DNA of 52,215 bases from IMG/VR virus record IMGVR_UViG_3300045988_073749; one strand, given 5' to 3'. The notes beneath the pieces are model-generated. The model was not told the origin of the DNA. It saw only the letters and a list, made by a program, of their open reading frames with translations, and ran no database searches. The number at the start of each line of letters is the position of its first letter. Position 1 is the stretch's first letter. The stretch is from a virus. Below are positions 4,590-52,215 of the stretch, one piece after another. Both the position numbers and the translations under genes were made by a program.

Positions 4590-5696
4590 TCACTCGGCCG
4601 GGGCAATCGCCTTGATGCGGCGAGCCGCCCGCATGGCGTTGTCGGTAAGCTGACGCTGCCACGCTCCCTGCGACGGCGCCCACCGGAAGCCCTCGCCCTT
4701 GAGCTCCGACCGCAGATCAGCATCCGGCCGGTCATCGAAGATGATCTGGAGACGGTTGACGCCCTGGTTCACGACGACCTTCCCGCCGTCAAACTCCCAG
4801 CCCTCGTCCGGGTTCTCCTTCTTCTTCTCCAGCTCGGCGATCCGCTGGCGGATTCGCCGGATGTTCGCATTGTTGTTCTGGAGCTGATAGGCCGGGTAGC
4901 CGATGCGGCCGCAGAAGTCGGGTGCCCGGAGCTTGGCGATCTCCTCCTCGGTGTAGCCGAGCTCGGCGAGCTTCGCGTCGCCCGCTTCCTTGTTCTTCAT
5001 GCGGATAGCCGCGTTGGCCGCCTTCATCTCCTCCTGGAGCTCCTCCAGCTTCCGCAGCTTGAGCTTGAGCTTATCCAGGGCCAGGGGGTCATCGGACGAG
5101 ATGCCGCCCGTTCCGACGGACTTGATGCGGCCGATGATGCCGTTGATCTCCTGCCACTCCGCCATGTTCTTATCAGACGCCGCGTTCTGGCGCTCCTTCT
5201 TGCGGACCGGGAAGTTGCTTCCGCCGGAGATCAGCACCGATGGACACATCGTACCGATGCGGTACCCGTCGTTCAGGTTGGCAGCCAGGCGGCGGGAATA
5301 GGAAGCCAGCAGTCCGTCGATCTTCTCATGGTACATGGGGTCCGTGCGCTGCTTCTGACGCTGGGCCACCATGGAGGCCTTGTCCACCTGGAGGCGGTAG
5401 TCCCAGGTCGCGGACCCAGGGACGTACTCGCTGAAGCTCATCATCTCCTTGGCCCGGCGGGCCATGTTCTCGTTGATGGGGTGGTACTCGGGGGACGGGC
5501 CGGGGACCAGGCCGTAGGCGTCCAGGTCACTCCCGGGGAGCTCCTGCTCGAACTCGACGTACCCCCAGAAGCGCTCGGTGAATCCCTCGAACTGCGAGCC
5601 GTTCTGGCCGTAGCTCTCGATGACGTTCGGTGCGGTGGTGGTGGGGTACTCCATGACGCCCTCCGGCGTCTTACGGGTGATGTAGTAGCGGTACAT
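4590..5696 (-). CDS. DUF3560-domain protein with an N-terminal polyvalent-protein-like region
   Basis: C-terminal RLQIIFDDRPDADLRSELKGEGFRWAPSQGAWQRQLTDNA matches my memory of the DUF3560 signature; AAAGGAG RBS. Confidence 0.55.
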   Translation of the reverse strand: MYRYYITRKTPEGVMEYPTTTAPNVIESYGQNGSQFEGFTERFWGYVEFEQELPGSDLDAYGLVPGPSPEYHPINENMARRAKEMMSFSEYVPGSATWDYRLQVDKASMVAQRQKQRTDPMYHEKIDGLLASYSRRLAANLNDGYRIGTMCPSVLISGGSNFPVRKKERQNAASDKNMAEWQEINGIIGRIKSVGTGGISSDDPLALDKLKLKLRKLEELQEEMKAANAAIRMKNKEAGDAKLAELGYTEEEIAKLRAPDFCGRIGYPAYQLQNNNANIRRIRQRIAELEKKKENPDEGWEFDGGKVVVNQGVNRLQIIFDDRPDADLRSELKGEGFRWAPSQGAWQRQLTDNAMRAARRIKAIAPAE

Positions 5697-12484: not shown

Positions 12485-13513
12485 TTATACCACGGTCAGG
12501 TAGGACAGCGCAACCCAGGACGTGATTTCCTTGAGAAGCGCCTCCTGGACCCCCTTGTGGGTGGCGATCTGCTTCACGGTGTACCGGCGGTTCTTGCCGC
12601 TCACGTAGTCCGGGACCTTGGCCCCTCTGGAGGTGGCGAGGCCGCCGTAGACGGCCCCGGCCTGGATGGTGACGGTGCTGCCCACCGTCACGGCCTTGGA
12701 CGCCGTAGAGCTGCTGGTGCCGTTCTTGGTGGCGTAGTCCAAAGAAATCCACCCGGCTCCGCTCTTGAGCTTGCCCCACTTGGAAGCGCCGGTGCCGCCG
12801 GCCTCCGCAACGATGGTGTAGACGCCGGGGTTGATAGCGCCCTTGCTGCCGTAGTTGGTGCCGGGGCCGGAACGGATATTGAGGTCCGTCGCTGTCACTT
12901 TCACCGTGTAGTTTACGGCTGTCTGAGCGCTGCCGGATGCGCCGGTGCCGGTGCTGGGGCTGGTGGTGCTGGAGCTGCCACCCAGCCGCTTCGTGACCTC
13001 GGCGGCAATCTCGCCGTGGAGGTTGTAGAGGTAATCGCCGGGGCAAGACTTGTTCGCAAACCAGCGGTGAACGGTCATCACCATCTCCCCGGACTTGGGG
13101 GCATAGGCAAGGGTCTTCGCCTTGTCCCCGAACCAGAGCAGCTTCTTGGCCCCGTTCCGGCGGCAAATATCCGTCACAAGGTCCAGCAGCGCGGCATAGG
13201 CCGCCGCCGTGACCTTGTAGGGGGCCTTGTTCTCGCTGGCCGTCTCAATGGTAATGGCGCGGTGGTCGTTGGAGGAGCTGGAGGTACACCAGCTCCGGTC
13301 CTTTTCCTCCACGCACAGGCCGATGGAGCCGTCATAGCCCACAACGTAGTTGCAGGACGCTTGCTTGCTGGAGGGCTGGAAGACCTCACACCCGCGCTTA
13401 GCCGTCACTTGGCCGACGAAACAATGGATGCTGATGGTGTCGATTTTATGATTGCGGGGACTGTTCTTGTTGGGGCTGATGAGGGTATAGGTCGCAAGGC
13501 TGCTGTTACTCAT
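12485..13513 (-). CDS. Endolysin: N-acetylmuramoyl-L-alanine amidase (Amidase_2/PGRP type) with C-terminal SH3-like repeats
   Basis: ...IDTISIHCFVGQ...NDHAITIET...HRWFANKSCPG; two similar C-terminal modules; ATG 13513. Confidence 0.8.
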   Translation of the reverse strand: MSNSSLATYTLISPNKNSPRNHKIDTISIHCFVGQVTAKRGCEVFQPSSKQASCNYVVGYDGSIGLCVEEKDRSWCTSSSSNDHRAITIETASENKAPYKVTAAAYAALLDLVTDICRRNGAKKLLWFGDKAKTLAYAPKSGEMVMTVHRWFANKSCPGDYLYNLHGEIAAEVTKRLGGSSSTTSPSTGTGASGSAQTAVNYTVKVTATDLNIRSGPGTNYGSKGAINPGVYTIVAEAGGTGASKWGKLKSGAGWISLDYATKNGTSSSTASKAVTVGSTVTIQAGAVYGGLATSRGAKVPDYVSGKNRRYTVKQIATHKGVQEALLKEITSWVALSYLTVV

Positions 13514-13874
13514 GGTTGGTTTCCTCCTTGTCCTCGCTGACTTCGGTAGTGGTCTCAATGGCGATGCCCTCCAGAGGGATGATGCCCTGGGTCAGCTCAT
13601 AGACGGCGGCCTCGATGAGCGCGTCAAGCTCATTCTCATTCACAGTGACGCCGCGCTCTTTCAGCCAGGCAATAACGTACTGCTTCTTCTCTTCTCCGTG
13701 CCCGCTGCCCTTGAAAATCTGCTCAGCAGCGGAGACGGCGATTTTGACCCAGGCGTTGATTTCCGCCTGCTGGGATGCCGTGGTCTTGGACTTGATGAAC
13801 GGGATGAGCACACAGGTAACGATGACGCCGATCAGAGCGGCCACAGCTTCGATGATAGGGGTGATGTCGTACAT
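13506..13874 (-). CDS. Holin (LL-H-like)
   Basis: N-terminal TM segment (PIIEAVAALIGVIVTCVLIPFI), then ...EQIFKGSGHGEEKKQYVIAWLKERG. Confidence 0.6.
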   Translation of the reverse strand: MYDITPIIEAVAALIGVIVTCVLIPFIKSKTTASQQAEINAWVKIAVSAAEQIFKGSGHGEEKKQYVIAWLKERGVTVNENELDALIEAAVYELTQGIIPLEGIAIETTTEVSEDKEETNHE

Positions 13875-13892
13875 GATAAATCCTCCTTGTTT

Positions 13893-14213
13893 TTATCCGA
13901 GTGTAGGTCCGCTGGTGTCGGACCCGCCCTCTGTGTTGTTGGTTTGGAATGGGTTTCCGTCAGCGTCCAGCCCGTGGCGGTTTCGACTGACTTTTTCGGT
14001 GGTGGATGCCGCCGCATAGCTCACCAGATAGCCGATGCAGGCGGTAAAGATGGTGGTGGTAACATCGCTCGCGGTCTGCTTGTCCAGGTAGGCGAGGATG
14101 TAGGAAGCTACGGCGGTGGCCGTGGCAATAAGGACGGCCCACGCAGCGAGCTTCTTTTTGAACTCCCATGGGCGGCGCGTCTTGGCGCGTTTCCCCTCAT
14201 ACTTACCAGCCAT
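13893..14213 (-). CDS. Two-TM membrane protein (holin-like)
   Basis: Hydrophobic segments AAWAVLIATATAVASYILAYL and TIFTACIGYLVSYAAA. Confidence 0.45.
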   Translation of the reverse strand: MAGKYEGKRAKTRRPWEFKKKLAAWAVLIATATAVASYILAYLDKQTASDVTTTIFTACIGYLVSYAAASTTEKVSRNRHGLDADGNPFQTNNTEGGSDTSGPTLG

Positions 14214-14223
14214 AGCGTCCCCC

Positions 14224-14571
14224 TCAGTCCATCAAGGAGGAAACGCCTTGCCGGGTGAGGAAGTCCTTTTGCTTGTGTTTGATGTCGGCGGCGTAGTCCA
14301 GGGCGTCGTGCATATCCCCGTTACAGTGGGCGTCGGGGATGCGCTGGACGGCCCTTGCAGTCGCTTCCCCCAGGGCAATAGCGGCATTGGTCCCCTGGAC
14401 AACCAGGACGAAGAGGTCCTTTTGGCCCTGTTCCTGGGCCGCCTGTTCCTTTTCCCGCTTGTCGATACGGCGCTCCAGACGCCAGATGATAAGGCCCATG
14501 ATCGCGCTCGGAATACCCATAGCCGCGACAAAAGCAAGCACCATCTGGCCCAGGCCGATGTTTACTTCCAT
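14224..14571 (-). CDS. Membrane-anchored coiled-coil protein of the lysis cassette
   Basis: MEVNIGLGQMVLAFVAAMGIPSAIMGLIIW...; ATG 14571 after AAGGGGTGAG. Confidence 0.4.
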   Translation of the reverse strand: MEVNIGLGQMVLAFVAAMGIPSAIMGLIIWRLERRIDKREKEQAAQEQGQKDLFVLVVQGTNAAIALGEATARAVQRIPDAHCNGDMHDALDYAADIKHKQKDFLTRQGVSSLMD

Positions 14572-14584
14572 TGGTCTCACCCCT

Positions 14585-15373: not shown

Positions 15374-17071
15374 TTAGATGTAGCTTGCGGACAGAGAGTA
15401 GCAGGCGATGCTTTCATACCCTCCGACCTTGGTGATCTGGACGCGGACACCCACCGCAAAGCTATCCGCAGTCTTCGCGGAATTGCTGAAAATGTGCTTG
15501 AGGCCGAGCTGTGCAGTCTCCCAGGTCGGCTCTTCGTCGTTGTAGTTGTTGCAGACCTGGATTGTCACGCCGTCCTCGTGGGCGTTGTACCGCATGGAGA
15601 CAAGGATTTTCTGAGCGGCGGCGCTGGTGTCATCCACCTTCCAGTCAAAGTCGATGATGGAGACGGACCGGGTAAAGGTGATGGTACGGGTGACGCTGTT
15701 CCCGGCGCTGTCCGAGACCTTGATAGTCATGGTGTGCGGCCCAGTGAGGGCGGCGAACTGCGCCGCCGTGAGCGCAAAGGTGTATTGGTGGTTCCGCTCT
15801 GCCGGGGTGATGGTATTAAGGGTCACACCATCCAGGCTCTCTACGATGGTGAGCGTGTCTCCGGCGTCCCCGTCGTTGACCGTGTACTGGAACGAGGGCG
15901 GCGTAGTCACCACGCCGAGCTGCTGATCGCTGCCGCTCACTGTCGGGTCTACATTGTGGGTGACGGTCCGGGTGGGGCTGGTGGTGTATGCGCTATACGC
16001 GGCCTTGCTGTCCTTGGCGCGGACCCGGTAGGCTACCGTGTTCATCGCCGTGGTGATCGTGTCGCTGAACTGCGTCGCAGCCCCGTCGTAGATTTTGGAC
16101 CATGCGCCGCTATTGTACTGCCGCTCAAGCTCGTAGCTTACGGCGTCGCTGTCCGGGTCCACCGACGCCGCCCAGGAGACGGTGAGACCTTTACCGCTCC
16201 GCACGTCCTCCGGCACGGTGATGGACGGGGGCGTGGTGGGGGCGTTATTCCAGATAATCGTGTAGTACCCCTCTCCATCCGGTGTATCAGATACCAAGAT
16301 GTCAGAGGACAGATTCAAAGCCGGGCGCACACCCCAGTTGCCGTAGTACGCGCTGTTGTAGTGGAGGCTCCCGTCCGAGTACACGCAGCGCACGTAGTAC
16401 GCGTTCGACGAATACGGGGAGCGGAGCCACCAGTACCAGAACTGCGACGCGCTCAAGCTGCTATTGGTGTACTCGCTGTTGCTCACGGCCTGAGCTGTGG
16501 GCTTGCACTGGCGGCTTGCGTTGTCGCTGAACATAGCCAGCTTCGTGCCCTCCGCGACGCCGTTCTCCGAACCGAGGCCAACCTCTGCCATGGACAGCAG
16601 AAAAATCTTGTCTTGGACGGTCTCGGACCCGCCGCCGTCCGTGCCGGGCTTTGCGACGGTCAGGGTGGTGGTGAGCAGCGCGGCCAGCATCTCCGCGCCG
16701 AAGCCGGTCAGGAAGCCGGATTGTGCGTCGTACGCGTTGTGGCCGTTCCAGACGTAGGAATTGGACGGGGGCCGGTCATAGCTGTGCTGGGCCTGATACC
16801 AGCCGGTCCCGCTCTTATTGAGCCACTGGCGGATGTTAGCCAGGGAATAGCGGTTGTTGCCGTATCTCTCCCGGTCCAAGATGCCGTCGCTCTCCATAGC
16901 GTCGAAGCAGCAGATTTTGATGATGCTCTCGGCCACAAGGGTTGTGCTGTTGGCCGGATAGCCTGCGTGGTTTTTATCACCGATTTCCCAGCCGATGGGG
17001 ATGCCGTAATACTTAGTCTTTGCGTCCCGCACTTTCGCCTTTACGGGTAGGGCGCTGATTTTCTGCGGCAT
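15374..17071 (-). CDS. DGR target protein 1: DUF6273-like/C-type-lectin-fold domain carrying VR1, followed by Fn3/Ig-like C-terminal domains (receptor-binding candidate)
   Basis: ...FLLSMAEVG...FWYWWLRSPYSSNAYYVRCVYSDGSLHYNSAYYGNWGVRPALNL...; contains VR1. Confidence 0.8.
   Translation of the reverse strand: MPQKISALPVKAKVRDAKTKYYGIPIGWEIGDKNHAGYPANSTTLVAESIIKICCFDAMESDGILDRERYGNNRYSLANIRQWLNKSGTGWYQAQHSYDRPPSNSYVWNGHNAYDAQSGFLTGFGAEMLAALLTTTLTVAKPGTDGGGSETVQDKIFLLSMAEVGLGSENGVAEGTKLAMFSDNASRQCKPTAQAVSNSEYTNSSLSASQFWYWWLRSPYSSNAYYVRCVYSDGSLHYNSAYYGNWGVRPALNLSSDILVSDTPDGEGYYTIIWNNAPTTPPSITVPEDVRSGKGLTVSWAASVDPDSDAVSYELERQYNSGAWSKIYDGAATQFSDTITTAMNTVAYRVRAKDSKAAYSAYTTSPTRTVTHNVDPTVSGSDQQLGVVTTPPSFQYTVNDGDAGDTLTIVESLDGVTLNTITPAERNHQYTFALTAAQFAALTGPHTMTIKVSDSAGNSVTRTITFTRSVSIIDFDWKVDDTSAAAQKILVSMRYNAHEDGVTIQVCNNYNDEEPTWETAQLGLKHIFSNSAKTADSFAVGVRVQITKVGGYESIACYSLSASYI
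16318..16425 (-). repeat. DGR variable region VR1 (108 nt)
   Basis: Gap-free alignment to the TR; 10 mismatches, all at TR adenines. Confidence 0.9.
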
Positions 17072-18119
17072 GGTTTGACTTTACACTCCTTTCAAAGATG
17101 GAGGCGCAAACCGCGTCGTACTTGGTGATGAGTTCCCGGCATTGGCCGTGGGAAGCATGAGACCTCCAGCTCTGGTAGCTCTCTTCAATCTGCTTCCGGG
17201 TCATAGCGCCGTTTTCATACATCACCGCGTATTTCCGCAGCTTGCGCCTCATACGGTCTTTGCTGGAACGCCTAACTTTCCGTATTACCTTTCCGGTGTC
17301 GGTCAGGTATGTGTGGAAGCCCAAAAAGTCCAGGCCGTTCCGCAAGGGGAAGATCTGTGTCTTCTGGTTTAGCTCAAGACCTCTCGGGGTCAAGAACTGC
17401 TCGACTTTCCTCCACGCTTCACGAAGCGCCTCCTTGCTCTCGCAGATGATATAAAAATCATCCATGTAGCGGCCATAGTACCGCATTCGGAGGACTTCTT
17501 TGACGTAGTGGTCGAGTTCATTCAGATACAATAGGGCGTACACCTGGGACGATTGATTGCCTATGGGGATGCCGACATTACCAGGGGTGCTATCTATGAT
17601 AGCGTCGGACAAGGCCCGGCTCCGTGGGTCTGTGAGCAGCTTATTGACATCTCGCTTGAGAATGTCGTGCCGGATGCTGGCGAAGTAGTGCCGGACATCC
17701 GCTTTCAGGACCCAGCCGTCGGCGCTCCCGTGCTTCCGGTAATACTCCCGCATGAAGTCACGGAGGCGGTCGAGGCCGAAGTGGGTTCCCTTTCCGACTT
17801 GGCTCCCGTAGTTATCCAGGATAAAGGGGCGGCTCAGGACGGGGTAAAGGATGTTGTCGCAAAAGGCGTGTTGCACGATTTTGTCCTTGACGCTGTTCGT
17901 CTGGATGAGGCGTCGCTTTGGCTCAAAGACGTAGAACTCATGGTAATTTCCAGGCTTGTAGAGACCGTCCCGCAGCTCAGCTTGCAGGACGGTGATCGCC
18001 TCCAGAGTGTTCAGCTCCACTTTGGCAACGGAGTCTTTCCATCGCTTGCCTTTCCTGGTTGCCCGATACGCCGCATAGAGATTAGCGAAGTCATAAACGA
18101 CTTCAAAATTCTGTTCCAT
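17013..18119 (-). CDS. DGR reverse transcriptase
   Basis: GIPIGNQSSQ, RYYGRYMDDF (YMDD), LGF; ATG 18119; the 3' end overlaps the target-1 start by 59 nt. Confidence 0.9.
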   Translation of the reverse strand: MEQNFEVVYDFANLYAAYRATRKGKRWKDSVAKVELNTLEAITVLQAELRDGLYKPGNYHEFYVFEPKRRLIQTNSVKDKIVQHAFCDNILYPVLSRPFILDNYGSQVGKGTHFGLDRLRDFMREYYRKHGSADGWVLKADVRHYFASIRHDILKRDVNKLLTDPRSRALSDAIIDSTPGNVGIPIGNQSSQVYALLYLNELDHYVKEVLRMRYYGRYMDDFYIICESKEALREAWRKVEQFLTPRGLELNQKTQIFPLRNGLDFLGFHTYLTDTGKVIRKVRRSSKDRMRRKLRKYAVMYENGAMTRKQIEESYQSWRSHASHGQCRELITKYDAVCASIFERSVKSNHAAENQRPTRKGESAGRKD

Positions 18120-18288
18120 AATAGGCACCTTGCGCCGCTGGTAGCGCCGAAGCTCCAATGGGCGAGCCTCAGCGCGTCGGCGCTATGTGTTTATCCCTGC
18201 CCTGTCAGGCCGGGACCGGATACGTCCTCCTTTGATGGTGGGCTTCTGCTTTCTCCCTTTCGGGTTACTCGGTCACGGTATTCCACCG

Positions 18289-18396
18289 AAGCCGGGCGCA
18301 CACCCCTGTTGCCGTTGTACGCGTTGTTGTTGTTGAGGCTCCCGTCCGAGTTCACGTAGCGCACGTTGTTCGCGTTCGACGAATTCGGGGAGCGGA
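18289..18396 (-). repeat. DGR template repeat (TR)
   Basis: AAC-rich pseudo-ORF (SPNSSNANNVRYVNSDGSLNNNNAYNGNRGVRPA) homologous to VR1 and VR2. Confidence 0.9.
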
Positions 18397-18448: not shown

Positions 18449-18877
18449 TCATCGCCGTGCGCCGCCGGTCTGAACTTGCTGCCGGAAGCGCTCGGCGTCC
18501 TTTTTACGCCACGACGCGGCAAGGTTCTTTACGTCGGTGGTGAGGCCCGTCCAATATTCACACCGCCTGATGTCGATATACCCCTGCTCCAGAGCTATAT
18601 CCAGGAAGTTCAGGAAGACCTTGCAGTTGGTCAAGACCTCTTTCTGGAGGTCAAGGCGCGTGTTCATCTCAGCGACGGTCCGAGGGTATATCTCGTTGGC
18701 CGCTATGATGTCATGCAGGATTTGGATTGAGAGGTTCTGCATCCTCTGGCAGAGGGTGAAGCGCACCTTTTTAGGGAACAGCTTAGTGTTGTTCGTGAGC
18801 TGCAAGGTATGGTTTACCAGGTCTTTTGCCTTGCAGATGATGGTGAGTTCACCGTGCCGGTTCTGCAAACAGGACAC
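18449..18877 (-). CDS. avd: Accessory variability determinant (Avd-like four-helix-bundle protein)
   Basis: ...KAKDLVNHTLQLTNNTKLFPKKVRFTLCQRMQN...; sits upstream of TR-RT; the start may be TTG 18868. Confidence 0.7.
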   Translation of the reverse strand: MSCLQNRHGELTIICKAKDLVNHTLQLTNNTKLFPKKVRFTLCQRMQNLSIQILHDIIAANEIYPRTVAEMNTRLDLQKEVLTNCKVFLNFLDIALEQGYIDIRRCEYWTGLTTDVKNLAASWRKKDAERFRQQVQTGGARR

Positions 18878-48026: not shown

Positions 48027-48908
48027 TTATCCCTCCAGAAGGCTTTCCAGGTTGTCCAGTCTCTTGCACTCCATCTCGCTGTTGTCCCCGAAGATGACGT
48101 GGAGCTGGTTGAGCATGATCTCAACGTCGGCCCGCTCCATGGAGATGTTGTCGCGGATGGCCTGCTCATCCCCGATACCGTAGTCCTCGCAGAACACCAG
48201 CTTCAAGATGGCCTGGGACAGCTCGCTCATCTCCTCAATCGCCTTGAGGGCCTGGGCTCTCTTGCCCCACTTGGCAACGGCCTTCTCATAGAGTGCCATC
48301 TCGCGCTGCTCCGGGGTCATCTCCTCCGGCTCCTCCGCCTGGTCTTCCTGGTCATCGACAGATACCAAGATGTCAGATTTCAGGGTCAAAGCCGGGCGCA
48401 CACCCCCGTCGCCGACGTACGCGAGGTCGTAGTCGAGGCTCCCGTCCGAGTACACGAAGCGCACGAAAGAGGTGCCGGAGCTGGCGGGCGTACCATCGGG
48501 GGTAATGAGCCAGCGCCAGTGTTCCGGCGCAGGGTGAAGGTCTCTGGTCTCCCGGTATTCATCCGCCGTCAGCATGGTCACCTTATCGAGGCAAGCCCCG
48601 TAGTCGTTGAGGCCATCATCGGCGGTCAGATCGCGGTAGGTGGGGACGATGAACTCCAGGATGCCGGGGCGTTCCTTCTCCAGGGCGTCCAGGAAGTCAC
48701 CGTTCAGCCGCTCCCGCAGGCTGGCGTTATTCCAGTTGTTGTTGCCGTTCTCGTCGAAGGGTGCCTGGAAGATGTCTTCCGCAGCCTCGCAGAAATAGTT
48801 CTGCACGGCTCCAGAGTGGGCGGGCTCAAGCTCCTTGAGCACCTTCCAGTTGATACCGGCCAGGGCGAAGGTGTCGCCACGGCGCAGCGCGTTCAGTTTG
48901 ACTTCCAT
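48027..48908 (-). CDS. DGR target protein 2: DUF6273-like/CLec-fold domain with VR2, an acidic linker, and a MazG-like all-alpha NTP-pyrophosphohydrolase-type C-terminal domain
   Basis: ATG 48908 after AGGAGG; ...WRWLITPDG...FVRFVYSDGSLDYDLAYVGDGGVRPALTL...; C-terminal KAIEEMSELSQA... and ...MERADVEIMLNQL. Confidence 0.7.
   Translation of the reverse strand: MEVKLNALRRGDTFALAGINWKVLKELEPAHSGAVQNYFCEAAEDIFQAPFDENGNNNWNNASLRERLNGDFLDALEKERPGILEFIVPTYRDLTADDGLNDYGACLDKVTMLTADEYRETRDLHPAPEHWRWLITPDGTPASSGTSFVRFVYSDGSLDYDLAYVGDGGVRPALTLKSDILVSVDDQEDQAEEPEEMTPEQREMALYEKAVAKWGKRAQALKAIEEMSELSQAILKLVFCEDYGIGDEQAIRDNISMERADVEIMLNQLHVIFGDNSEMECKRLDNLESLLEG
48389..48467 (-). repeat. DGR variable region VR2 (79 nt of TR homology)
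   Basis: 13 mismatches to the TR, all at TR adenines; homology ends after TR position 79. Confidence 0.85.
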
Positions 48909-48924
48909 ATTGATTTCCTCCTGT

Positions 48925-49137
48925 TTATTTATTGGGGCGTTTCCCCCGGGGCAGCTTCTTATTGGCCGACGTTTTCGCGGTAGGAAGGACCTGGCCGCAG
49001 CGGCTCGGGTGGTTGAGGCACGGGTTTTTGCAGGTCCCGTTATTCTCTGGGTTGTACCCGCAGTCAGCGCAGCAGACGTTCCCATGCCTTCGGTCGCAGT
49101 TGAAGATCGTGCATCCTCTCGGGTATGATCTGCTCAT
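48925..49137 (-). CDS. Cys-rich small protein (70 aa)
   Basis: CTIFNCDRRHGNVCCADCGYNPENNGTCKNPCLNHPSRCG. Confidence 0.45.
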   Translation of the reverse strand: MSRSYPRGCTIFNCDRRHGNVCCADCGYNPENNGTCKNPCLNHPSRCGQVLPTAKTSANKKLPRGKRPNK

Positions 49138-49377: not shown

Positions 49378-49741
49378 TCACATCCTCCTCCAGGTACTTT
49401 TCCCAGGTGCGCCGCATGGGTTCCTCTCCCATCATGTAGGCCCACACCCGATCATTCTTCTCGGTAAGCTCAAGGGCATATAGGGCAGCTTCCCTCGGCG
49501 TCCTGAACACCTTTTTTCCGATGTCCTTGTTCTTGTAGTAGTGCAACTGCCGGTATCCGTCTGGGCCGGGCCCATGAAGGACCATCTCATCCCATTTCGG
49601 TAGCAGTTTTTGGACCTCCGCTCTGCACACGCAATACTCCTTCTCGCAAAGGTGGCTGCCCTTCGGCGTGTAGAAGTGCTCTACTACGACCCAGAAGACC
49701 TCTCCGACCTTTGCCTGGTCTCTCGCGCTCACTATCATCAT
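49370..49741 (-). CDS. Hypothetical protein (start uncertain: ATG 49741/49738 or GTG 49732)
   Basis: AGGAGG abuts the first ATG. Confidence 0.45.
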   Translation of the reverse strand: MMIVSARDQAKVGEVFWVVVEHFYTPKGSHLCEKEYCVCRAEVQKLLPKWDEMVLHGPGPDGYRQLHYYKNKDIGKKVFRTPREAALYALELTEKNDRVWAYMMGEEPMRRTWEKYLEEDVNV

Positions 49742-50334
49742 CCTCCTTCGTAGGGGTCCGGCAAGCTCCAGTCCCACGTTTCCCCGGTCTTCTCGTACTC
49801 CTTGCGGAAGTGGTTCTCCACTCCGTCTCCCTCGAAGAACAGGTAATCGGCCGGCAGCGTGCGGCCCACATCTTCCTCGCCAGCCTTTTCGGCCCCCCAG
49901 CGCAGAAGGACATCCTCAGCCAGTATCAGGAACTCTCCTGTCACCGGGGATGCCGGGTCGTAGGCGAACTGGTAAGGGGCGCTTACAACTTCCGCGATGG
50001 TCTCGCCATATCCACCGGCGTCCACCCGATTGAGGACGCACCAGACGACGGCCGCTTGCTGTGCTTTGCTCTTAACACCCCGGGCCTCCGCCCAGACTGT
50101 CTTCGCCAGCATCTCGATCTCCTGATGTGTCCAGGGGATCTCTGGCTCATCTGATGTCACATCGTCCGGGTCAGGAAGCAAAACAGAGCCTTCCCCAATC
50201 TCGATCTGAACCAGGTCCCCAGGGGCGGATTCCTCACCCGCCTCGGTGCCGAGCCGAAGCCCTCCGACGGTCACGCTTGCAAACAGGACCGCGCAGAGGG
50301 TCAGACACACGGCCACCACCAGTTTCTCTTTCAT
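49738..50334 (-). CDS. Secreted SleB/CwlJ-type cell-wall hydrolase
   Basis: Signal-peptide-like MKEKLVVAVCLTLCAVLFASV; ...TVWAEARG...VVWCVLNRV... Confidence 0.7.
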   Translation of the reverse strand: MKEKLVVAVCLTLCAVLFASVTVGGLRLGTEAGEESAPGDLVQIEIGEGSVLLPDPDDVTSDEPEIPWTHQEIEMLAKTVWAEARGVKSKAQQAAVVWCVLNRVDAGGYGETIAEVVSAPYQFAYDPASPVTGEFLILAEDVLLRWGAEKAGEEDVGRTLPADYLFFEGDGVENHFRKEYEKTGETWDWSLPDPYEGG

Positions 50335-50374
50335 GGGTACCACCTCTCGTTTTAATGCCACAGCGGGCAAGATT

Positions 50375-51094
50375 TTACCGGCCCATCCGGTTATCCCTGT
50401 CATAGTCATAGTCGTAGGCGTCATCCACAGACTTGATATTTCGAGCCCCAAAGTTGCGGTATATGGCATTTATGTATCTCCAGTTCACCGCGCCTGCAAG
50501 GCTGGCCTGCTCAAAAGCATAGACCAGGAGGGCCTTTTTCTCCTCCGATACCGTCATGACCGTGCCTTCCGGCCCTGTGCCCTCCTGATCTGTGATCTTG
50601 CGGAACACTTCGAGTTCGTCCCTCTGGGTCGCTCTCTCTCCCGGCCGGAACGTATCAAGCAGCTCTTGTGTTACGCTCTTGATCTCGCTCCCGATCTCCT
50701 CCGTGTAGCCGAAGTACCTGGTGTAGTCGTCCTCCAGGTATCCTTCGATGCCTGGCCTATCATTGGCCGGGTATACGTCGCTGCTTCCGGCGGCGTCCGG
50801 GTACTCCTGGAAGGCGATGGACACCAGCTTGTACCGTCCAGGTTTCTTCTTGACGCCCTTCTCGTAGATCAGCAGCCCGGCGTCCATGAGCTGTTGCCTC
50901 GCCGTCCGTACTGTTTTGTCAGAGCCGGACCCAAGGAGGGCTGTTAATCTGTCATTGTCTACGCTGAACCACTCCGGCCAGTGTAGCCTATTGGAAAACG
51001 CCATGAGCTTGTACCATAGGAGCTGCGCCGTAGCCGGGAGGGGCTGCCGTTTCATCCGCCGTTCAAAGGCATTTATCTCCAAGATGTAGTTCAA
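50375..51094 (-). CDS. DnaD-like replication protein / replisome organiser
   Basis: N-terminal winged-helix-like segment (...LWYKLMAFSN...DKTVRTARQQLMDAGLLIY) and C-terminal DnaD-type segment (...LVYAFEQASLAGAVNWRYINAIYRNF). Confidence 0.6.
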   Translation of the reverse strand: MNYILEINAFERRMKRQPLPATAQLLWYKLMAFSNRLHWPEWFSVDNDRLTALLGSGSDKTVRTARQQLMDAGLLIYEKGVKKKPGRYKLVSIAFQEYPDAAGSSDVYPANDRPGIEGYLEDDYTRYFGYTEEIGSEIKSVTQELLDTFRPGERATQRDELEVFRKITDQEGTGPEGTVMTVSEEKKALLVYAFEQASLAGAVNWRYINAIYRNFGARNIKSVDDAYDYDYDRDNRMGR

Positions 51095-51142: not shown

Positions 51143-52215
51143 TTATTCCATCGTGACTGTGCTCCCGTCCTCTCCGCCGGTTACCACGATGTTCTGCACA
51201 AACCGGGCCTTCATGGTCGGGTCGTGCGAGATAGCAAGGATTCTCATATTGGGGTTTCTGGAGGCCATGGCGGCCAGGGCGTCGGCGTAGGCCTCGGTTC
51301 CGTCGGCGTCCAGGAAGGGGGGCTCGTCGATGAACAGCATCCCAAGCTGCACCCCCGCCCGGCGAGCTTTCACGTCAGCCAGGCCCAGGGTGACGGCCAG
51401 CGCGATCTTGACCTTCTCGCCTCCACTGTGGGAGAGGTAGGGTCTGTTGCCTCCTGTGATGGTGTTAATCCACACCTCCAGGCTGTTCACGATCTGCTTC
51501 GTGGACTTCTGCTCCCGCTCGGTTCGGATGTCCACCGCCATACGGCCGCCGGTCATGGCTGCCAGAATTTCATTGGACCGGCGCATGATCTCCGGCACGA
51601 CGCCGCGCACGATCATGTACTGGATGCCGTCCAGGCCAAATGCCTGGGCCAGGGTGGTGTAGTCGCTCAAGACCACGCCGACGGCTTCCGCCTCCCGGCG
51701 GAGCTCCGAGGACTTGGTCTCCGCCTCTGCGATGTCCTCCAGCTTTGCCTTGAGCTGTCCCCGGCGGGTTGCTAGGTCGGTGAGGGACCGTCGCTGCGCT
51801 TCGATGTTGGCGCGGATGCGGTCTGCCACGTTCCCACCTCCCGGCACGCGGGCGGCGATCTCGTCGGCCTCTCGAAGTGCCTGCTCGGACTTGCCGCGCA
51901 GCTCCTCCACTTCCGCCTTGAGCTTCCTGATCTGCGGCTCCAGGGCCTCGGCCTTCGCTGCGGCCGCCTGACACTCCGCCAGAGTATCAGCCAAAACGGA
52001 AAAGGCCTTCACGTCTCCCTCGGCCTCCTGGTAGGCGGTAACGGCCTGGGCGAGCTTCACGCGCTCAGCGTCGATCTCGTCGATGCGGGCCGCCGCTGCA
52101 TCGAAGGTCCGTTTCACTTCCAGGACGGACGCCTCGAGTTTCTCCAGGGTAGCTTCCGCAACCGCGATGTCCGCCTCCTTCGAGGCGATGGAACGGAGGC
52201 GCCGCTCCTTGTACT
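51143..52215 (-). CDS. C-terminal part of the SbcD-SbcC fusion ORF (continues from 1..2784 through the circular junction)
   Basis: Coiled coil, then ...LSHSGGEKV (ABC signature) and GMLFIDEPPFLD (Walker B/D-loop); same frame as 2784..1 once the 52,138-nt period is applied. Confidence 0.85.
   Translation of the reverse strand, partial: YKERRLRSIASKEADIAVAEATLEKLEASVLEVKRTFDAAAARIDEIDAERVKLAQAVTAYQEAEGDVKAFSVLADTLAECQAAAAKAEALEPQIRKLKAEVEELRGKSEQALREADEIAARVPGGGNVADRIRANIEAQRRSLTDLATRRGQLKAKLEDIAEAETKSSELRREAEAVGVVLSDYTTLAQAFGLDGIQYMIVRGVVPEIMRRSNEILAAMTGGRMAVDIRTEREQKSTKQIVNSLEVWINTITGGNRPYLSHSGGEKVKIALAVTLGLADVKARRAGVQLGMLFIDEPPFLDADGTEAYADALAAMASRNPNMRILAISHDPTMKARFVQNIVVTGGEDGSTVTME
52139..52215. 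repeat. Second copy of the 77-nt closure overlap
   Basis: Identical to 1..77. Confidence 0.95.

Follow-up and report, generated by a model that had tools for sequence, protein, structure and literature searches.

Can a single diversity-generating retroelement (DGR) rewrite two proteins encoded in distant parts of one phage genome? This question is raised by IMG/VR virus record IMGVR_UViG_3300045988_073749, a stretch of 52,215 nucleotides that we refer to as the window, in which a repeat finder recovered three in-register copies of one sequence, at 16318-16425, 18289-18396 and 48389-48496. The middle copy is the template repeat (TR; 18289..18396, minus strand), a 108-nt core with 27 adenines that lies between an avd-like gene and a reverse transcriptase (RT) gene and has an adenine at each site that differs in either variable region (VR). 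The first copy is VR1, in the target-1 gene beside the RT, while the third contains VR2 (48389..48467, minus strand), in the remote target-2 gene. We consider it very probable that one avd-TR-RT DGR on the minus strand has two recipient sites here, and that the second lies in a gene of the early module that joins a variable domain to a MazG/DCTPP1-like domain.

The relationship between the TR and VR2 is adenine-specific. In a gapless coding-strand alignment, the 3' 79 nt of the TR (18367..18289) and VR2 (48467..48389) differ at 13 positions, every one of them a TR adenine. The tract holds 21 adenines, 13 of which differ, and all 58 of its non-A positions are identical (hypergeometric P = 7.7e-10 for 13/13 mismatches on A). 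This exact alignment agrees with the original prediction, which had counted 13 mismatches at 48389-48467, all at TR adenines; the window has zero non-A mismatches there. VR2 encodes residues ~148-173 of target 2. The adjoining stretch (48468..48496, minus strand), which is in register with the TR 5' 29 nt, is mismatched at 21 of 29 positions, 15 of them non-A, indicating that homology to the TR genuinely ends there and that this stretch is not rewritten by the TR. The differences beyond position 79, counted from the GC-rich end, are indeed not A-specific, as had been claimed, and the same 29 nt of the TR are non-homologous at VR2 in all seven genomes of the comparative set described below (11-15 non-A mismatches each).

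VR2 therefore uses about three-quarters of the TR, as predicted, namely positions 30/31-108 of 108. Position 30, the 5'-most mismatch (A>T), is a T in every VR2 allele seen, within a codon that is either TTC or TAC (F or Y), and may be under selection or may lie immediately outside the tract that is transferred. Variation can thus be demonstrated for TR positions 31-108, and 20-21 of the 27 TR adenines are usable at VR2. VR2 lies 30,100 nt from the TR by the direct path, or 22,038 nt if the 52,138-nt circle is followed in the opposite direction, in line with the ~30 kb and ~22 kb first given.

For a comparison of the TR and VR2 across genomes, IMG/VR provided relatives of both the VR2 protein and the RT, and metagenomes and genomes provided further alleles. 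The cognate set comprised seven genomes: the window and six others in which the TR and VR2 were read from the same contig. Pooled over these genomes, mismatches in the 79-nt tract fell at A 75 times and at non-A twice (Fisher P = 5e-48), which supports transfer from TR to VR2 in these phages. The TRs themselves are polymorphic at four non-A sites, positions 35 (G/C), 48 (T/A), 62 (C/G) and 95 (T/C), and at these sites VR2 carries the base of its own genome's TR in 27 of 28 comparisons, including those in a genome with a VR2 gene 97.5% identical to that of the window but an RT only 74% identical.

The histories of the DGR cassette and the target-2 gene are discordant among the IMG/VR relatives (L001-L012 versus L031-L045). 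The closest VR2 genes (97%) accompany an RT only 74% identical, whereas the closest RTs (98-99%) accompany VR2 genes only 61% identical. Because VR2 matches the private bases of the resident TR despite this reshuffling, the flow of information from TR to VR2 postdates it. We regard this as an unusually clean comparative proof of rewriting in trans, in that VR2 follows the resident TR even after cassettes and targets have been reshuffled between phages.

Sequence variation among close relatives and alleles follows the same pattern. Genes 97-98% identical to the VR2 gene of the window carry 8-16 substitutions within VR2, almost all at TR-A sites: in relative L001, 9 of 20 differences from the window gene lie inside the VR core, 8 of them at TR-A (Fisher P = 2e-9), and in relative L012, 8 of 10 lie inside it, 7 of them at TR-A. 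Among 10 unique VR2 alleles recovered via their flanking sequence, 18 of 21 TR-A columns are variable versus 5 of 58 non-A columns (P = 1e-10), and four of those five variable non-A columns are known TR polymorphisms. All four bases are represented in the A-site variation. Flank-anchored, unbiased scans added only three metagenome alleles and two already-known viral alleles, so allele numbers are modest.

At the protein level, the target-2 cluster at 90% identity contains 1104 distinct sequences, of which 15 were compared with the window protein. All positions with at least five different residues among these 16 sequences lie in the VR (residues 151, 153, 159-162, 165 and 167). At residues 148 and 168 fewer states occur, and those positions outside the VR that vary at all have only two or three. 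Collectively, these data show an A-specific relation between the TR and VR2, TR-to-VR2 information flow in several genomes and hypervariability that is limited to A-coded codons.

The remaining parts of the DGR are found in a single cluster. The avd-like accessory gene (18449..18877, minus strand; 142 aa) is upstream of the TR, as is typical; it matches Pfam bAvd-like at E = 1.2e-7 and 32.6 bits, under the curated cut-off of 40, and its size and position fit. The DGR RT (17013..18158, minus strand; 381 aa) matches Pfam RVT_1 (E = 6e-20), and its translation contains IGNQSSQ and YMDD; DGR-type RTs are marked by the motifs [I/L/V]GxxxSQ and YxDD. Next to it lies the target-1 gene (15374..17071, minus strand), which encodes a 565-aa protein of the tentaclin type with an N-terminal DUF6273 domain (Pfam E = 6e-37 at residues 41-255) followed by immunoglobulin (Ig)-like domains (Big_9/Big_13 at 369-467), and which matches phrog_10993, "Hoc-like head decoration," at E = 8e-252. 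VR1 (16318..16425, minus strand) spans the whole 108 nt of the TR, with 10 mismatches, all 10 at adenines, and corresponds to residues ~216-251 of 565, in the 5' half of the gene. Neither the repeat finder nor a search with the GC-rich 3' core, which matches three sites only, revealed a second TR or a third VR in the window, which has a single RT and a single copy of the adenine-rich template. In one relative (L042, contig IMGVR_UViG_3300045988_023173, ~4680-4800), VR1 has an internal deletion compared to its own TR, and the alignment is out of register.

These features suggest how one template could reach both sites. The GC-rich 3' end common to the TR, VR1 and VR2 is GGGGTGTGCGCCCGGCTT, past which the TR is unrelated to the VRs. 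VR2 is followed by a VR-specific 3' flank (48358..48388, minus strand) that shares 25 of 31 nt with that of VR1 and is absent from the TR; a 19-mer, TCTGACATCTTGGTATCTG, is identical in the two flanks. This 3' asymmetry between VR and TR is that expected of a pair of initiation of mutagenic homing (IMH) sites, IMH/IMH*, making the flank a candidate IMH-like element that may mark the recipient sites. In the mechanism we propose, TR RNA would be reverse-transcribed with adenine-specific errors, and the resulting cDNA would replace homologous DNA at each VR. Transfer would be anchored at the common GC-rich 3' end, and its direction would presumably be set by the 3' flank that is present at both VRs and missing from the TR. 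At VR1, in the adjacent tentaclin gene, the entire 108-nt TR core would be used; at VR2, TR positions 30/31-108 alone would be used, because homology stops there. The 5' junction would be resolved within an A-poor stretch, CGTGCGCT, that abuts the VR2 boundary and, by analogy with Bordetella phage BPP-1, could supply short homology for resolving the 5' cDNA end. In this way, ~20 adenines at VR2 would diversify ~10 codons, those for residues 148, 151, 153, 159-162, 165, 167 and 168 of the C-lectin-like domain.

What kind of protein does VR2 diversify? The target-2 gene (48027..48908, minus strand) encodes 293 aa. A DUF6273/C-lectin-like domain at the N terminus is joined by an acidic linker to a MazG/DCTPP1-like four-helix domain of ~98 aa at the C terminus (window positions 48027-48323), as assigned from Pfam, PHROG and AlphaFold2/Foldseek. 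The start codon is most likely the ATG at 48908, with AGGAGG 8 nt upstream of it; homologues are 287-306 aa long. A longer open reading frame starting at 49085 (59 more codons, 48909-49085) was rejected in view of the AGGAGG before 48908 and of these homologue lengths, which argue against translation of the extension. The Pfam DUF6273 match (E = 3e-8) ends at the VR, and residues 2-213 match phrog_9958 over its full length (E = 2e-66). VR2 lies mid-gene, in frame at the C-terminal end of the C-lectin-like domain, where the AlphaFold2 model places beta strands at residues 148-177. The best Foldseek match is the T. ramosa IgA peptidase, which has DUF6273 as its N-terminal domain. The original prediction that one TR serves two proteins in trans is borne out, with the qualification that the proteins are not unrelated: each has a C-lectin-like DUF6273 domain that ends in the VR.

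In both its fold and its motif, the C-terminal domain of target 2 appears to be MazG-like. Its PHROG match is phrog_2245, "nucleoside triphosphate pyrophosphohydrolase" (E = 4e-16), and it is modeled as a four-helix bundle with a predicted local distance difference test (pLDDT) score of 95.4. Almost all of its top ~35 PDB fold matches in Foldseek are all-alpha nucleoside triphosphate pyrophosphohydrolases (NTP-PPases), including DCTPP1, RS21-C6, iMazG, DR2231, Bacillus MazG and YpjD. In 40 homologues down to 57% identity, E225, E229, E258 and D261 are invariant and E226 is at least 90% conserved; the ExxE...ExxD motif is also invariant in an alignment that includes stand-alone homologues. We take the ExxE-x28-ExxD spacing of E226/E229 and E258/D261 to be that of the metal site of the MazG/DCTPP1 family, and enzymatic activity of the domain is putative.

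The fusion is also present in the isolate genome of Pseudoflavonifractor sp. Marseille-P3106 and in a Flavonifractor metagenome-assembled genome (MAG), and is therefore not an assembly artefact. In related phages or prophages, a stand-alone homologue of 112-114 aa occupies the syntenic position (L016:4977-5315; Muriventricola aceti, L117:2986-3330), with the same zinc-finger and DUF5131 genes immediately downstream. The window gene is therefore a variable domain, of the type found in second targets, fused to a resident phage gene. Two target-2 relatives, P0035 and P0036, are cut short by a frameshift just past the acidic linker, before the MazG-like domain, and might represent either sequencing errors or natural on/off forms of the fusion.

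Several observations weigh against this interpretation of target 2 and its VR. Two TR/VR2 mismatches in the cognate set are at non-A positions (position 35 in contig 096603 and position 84 in 3300029856_000349), and the evidence for VR2 variation is between-genome rather than from within one population. DNA folds revealed no stable hairpin or cruciform downstream of VR1 or VR2 and no shared stem (z-scores -0.4 and -0.6). The 3' flank is conserved at synonymous codons, but in a sample consisting mostly of close relatives this conservation is not clearly above the gene-wide mean of 0.78, so a cis-acting role of the flank is putative. For the C-terminal domain, the Foldseek matches have TM (template modeling) scores of 0.5-0.6 but weak E-values (0.2-2), and neither Pfam nor PDB gave a MazG match in sequence searches, whether with a single sequence or with a profile, so that its assignment draws on its PHROG match, fold and motif.

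Could VR2 instead be a fossil, either a DUF6273 paralogue that was once a DGR target or a duplicate of VR1, that is no longer rewritten? Its truncated homology to the TR on the 5' side and the between-genome nature of the variation would be compatible with this, as would a study of Faecalibacterium prophages in which the VRs of phage Lelie gave no read-level signal during induction (PMC11792537). A fossil, however, would gather non-A differences too, and only 2 were seen versus 75 at A. Nor would it be expected to differ almost exclusively at TR-A between near-identical genes (97-98%, with their 8-16 VR2 substitutions), or to have taken up non-A bases peculiar to the resident TR once cassettes and genes had been exchanged. 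We consider this explanation improbable and already largely refuted.

A related concern is that VR2 owes its diversity not to retrohoming but to homologous recombination or gene conversion, the partner being VR1 or a co-infecting phage. VR1 and VR2 have ~100 nt of framework plus the 3' flank in common, and a chimeric database protein, P0084, joins a target-2 N terminus to a tentaclin C terminus inside the VR. This 488-aa protein, with its junction exactly within the VR, may represent real recombination between the two VRs, or else the repeat may have been mis-assembled. A conversion that started from VR1 would bring along its 5' 29 nt and flank as well, neither of which was seen. Within one genome, VR1 and VR2 differ at ~10 A sites, and the variation is A-site specific with all four bases present; we judge this route even less probable than a fossil. 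A third possibility is a chance or compositional likeness between DUF6273 coding sequences with no link to a DGR, in favor of which both regions code for a conserved strand at the C-terminal end of one domain family. This is refuted, and we give it practically no weight: non-A positions are identical at 58 of 58 sites, against differences at 13 of the 21 A positions (P = 8e-10), and the pattern recurs in six other genomes. We conclude that VR2 has been rewritten recently and in trans by the TR of this DGR, a part of the overall explanation of the window that we hold to be highly likely.

The two-target layout with a remote, shorter VR2 is already published, and the window is a further member of that class. 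Of the two targets in the gut phages nd4 and nd12, the first is a "tentaclin," with DUF6273 followed by Ig domains, and the second a small DUF6273 protein; their "VR2 is shorter," with 21 of 25 (nd4) and 20 of 28 (nd12) TR adenines usable (Baykov et al. 2023, PMC10743442). As in these phages, the window has one avd-TR-RT cassette, a tentaclin target 1 with its VR in the 5' half, and a target 2 located kilobases away with a shorter VR2. The TR regions of the window and nd12 are ~80% identical, and the N-terminal domain of target 2 is 39-44% identical to the nd4 and nd12 proteins. These second targets, however, consist of DUF6273 alone and have their VR at the gene's 3' end, unlike the window protein with its extra ~98-aa MazG/DCTPP1-like domain. 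The host group differs as well, being that of Flavonifractor/Pseudoflavonifractor relatives for the window.

Large and small DUF6273 targets are also found in the Faecalibacterium phages Lelie and CP11 (PMC11792537), and in Toutatisvirus a core gene of unknown function holds a second VR, 17.5 kb away from the TR (10.1101/2024.10.15.618418). As in all three, the VR of the window is at the C terminus of DUF6273 in both the large and the small target, and both Lelie orf58 and the N-terminal domain of target 2 in the window match phrog_9958 along its whole length. The second targets of Lelie and Toutatis differ from it in being 215 aa long and lacking a C-terminal enzyme-like domain; their amino acid identity to the window protein is ~32%, giving a range of 32-44% for the N-terminal domain over nd4, nd12, Lelie and Toutatis. 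The gene following the Lelie second target, orf59, was tested as a possible split-off MazG-like gene and is not MazG-like. Toutatis gp24 (L118:5884-6531) and the nd4 second target (L119:4995-5699) lie among genes for methyltransferases, regulators, replication initiators or polymerase fragments, not virion genes; the neighbors of Lelie orf58 (L109:2884-3531) are all annotated as hypothetical.

Many phage-associated DGRs have one adjacent and one non-adjacent target, up to 50 kb from the RT, and avd, TR and brt act in trans (Wu et al. 2018, PMC5758913). This work is a general survey that does not include the target architecture seen here. With the DGR of Bordetella phage BPP-1, the window shares adenine-specific TR-to-VR transfer, a GC-rich VR 3' end, a difference between TR and VR directly 3' of it and a target with a C-lectin fold. 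BPP-1 has a single adjacent target, a tail-fiber receptor-binding protein, and a hairpin/cruciform after its VR; in contrast, no such structure was detected 3' of the VRs in the window. The C-terminal domain of target 2 resembles the MazG-type all-alpha NTP pyrophosphohydrolases (DCTPP1/RS21-C6, iMazG, DR2231 and phage MazG) in its ~100-aa four-helix fold and ExxE...ExxD acidic residues, but differs from them in lacking a Pfam or PDB sequence match, in being fused to a DGR-diversified lectin-like domain and in that its activity is putative. In a megablast search against GenBank phages, the VR2 region was unmatched and the DGR region matched only the nd12 TR and one fragment. A pyrophosphohydrolase-like fusion of a DGR target is absent from the DGR papers cited above and from the four papers found to name both DGR and MazG, so the fusion of a variable C-lectin-like domain to a MazG-like domain appears to be unreported.

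The fusion and its gene neighborhood bear on function. A receptor-binding role has been assumed in the literature for second-target proteins, and the early/replication location of those of Toutatis and nd4 fits poorly with it. In the window, the position of the VR2 gene in the replication/early module and its fusion to a MazG-like domain suggest an intracellular role rather than receptor binding. A more speculative possibility, which we think rather unlikely, is that the small second target of these gut phages is an intracellular early protein and not a receptor-binding virion protein, and that in this lineage its hypervariable lectin-like domain recruits, or is co-regulated with, an active MazG/DCTPP1-like nucleotide pyrophosphohydrolase, forming a DGR-diversified "adaptor-enzyme" directed perhaps at variable host factors, such as defense proteins or nucleotide signals. 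If this were true, a phage DGR would diversify an enzyme-linked intracellular effector and a virion surface protein from one template. The MazG-like fusion provides a concrete biochemical handle on what phage DGRs diversify beyond host recognition.

The first 77 nt of the window are an exact direct repeat of the last (1-77 and 52139-52215), indicating a complete genome of 52,138 nt that is circularly assembled or has redundant termini. The minus strand carries nearly all credible genes, and along the direction of transcription the PHROG-based order begins with a replication/recombination/early module containing SbcC-like, DnaD-like and SleB-like hydrolase genes, the VR2 gene, DUF5131, a Holliday-junction resolvase, a regulator and a ParB-like gene. 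This is followed by terminase, portal and major head genes; by sheath, tape measure, baseplate and tail fiber genes; and then by the DGR, after which come holin-like genes and an endolysin and, finally, primase and other genes. VR2 had been placed in a different functional module from VR1, and the annotation supports this: the VR1 gene adjoins the RT downstream of the tail genes, while the VR2 gene is within the early module, with DnaD-like, SbcC-like, Holliday-junction resolvase, ParB-like and DUF5131 neighbors. The occurrence of the fusion in Pseudoflavonifractor sp. Marseille-P3106 and the Flavonifractor MAG points to the likely host group. That the window is the complete genome of a temperate myovirus-like phage of an Oscillospiraceae host (Flavonifractor/Pseudoflavonifractor group) belongs to the same overall explanation, which we hold, taken jointly, with high confidence. 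The SleB/endolysin-like cell-wall hydrolase gene (49738-50469, minus strand) is located in the early/replication module, remote from the lysis cassette at 12485-14580.

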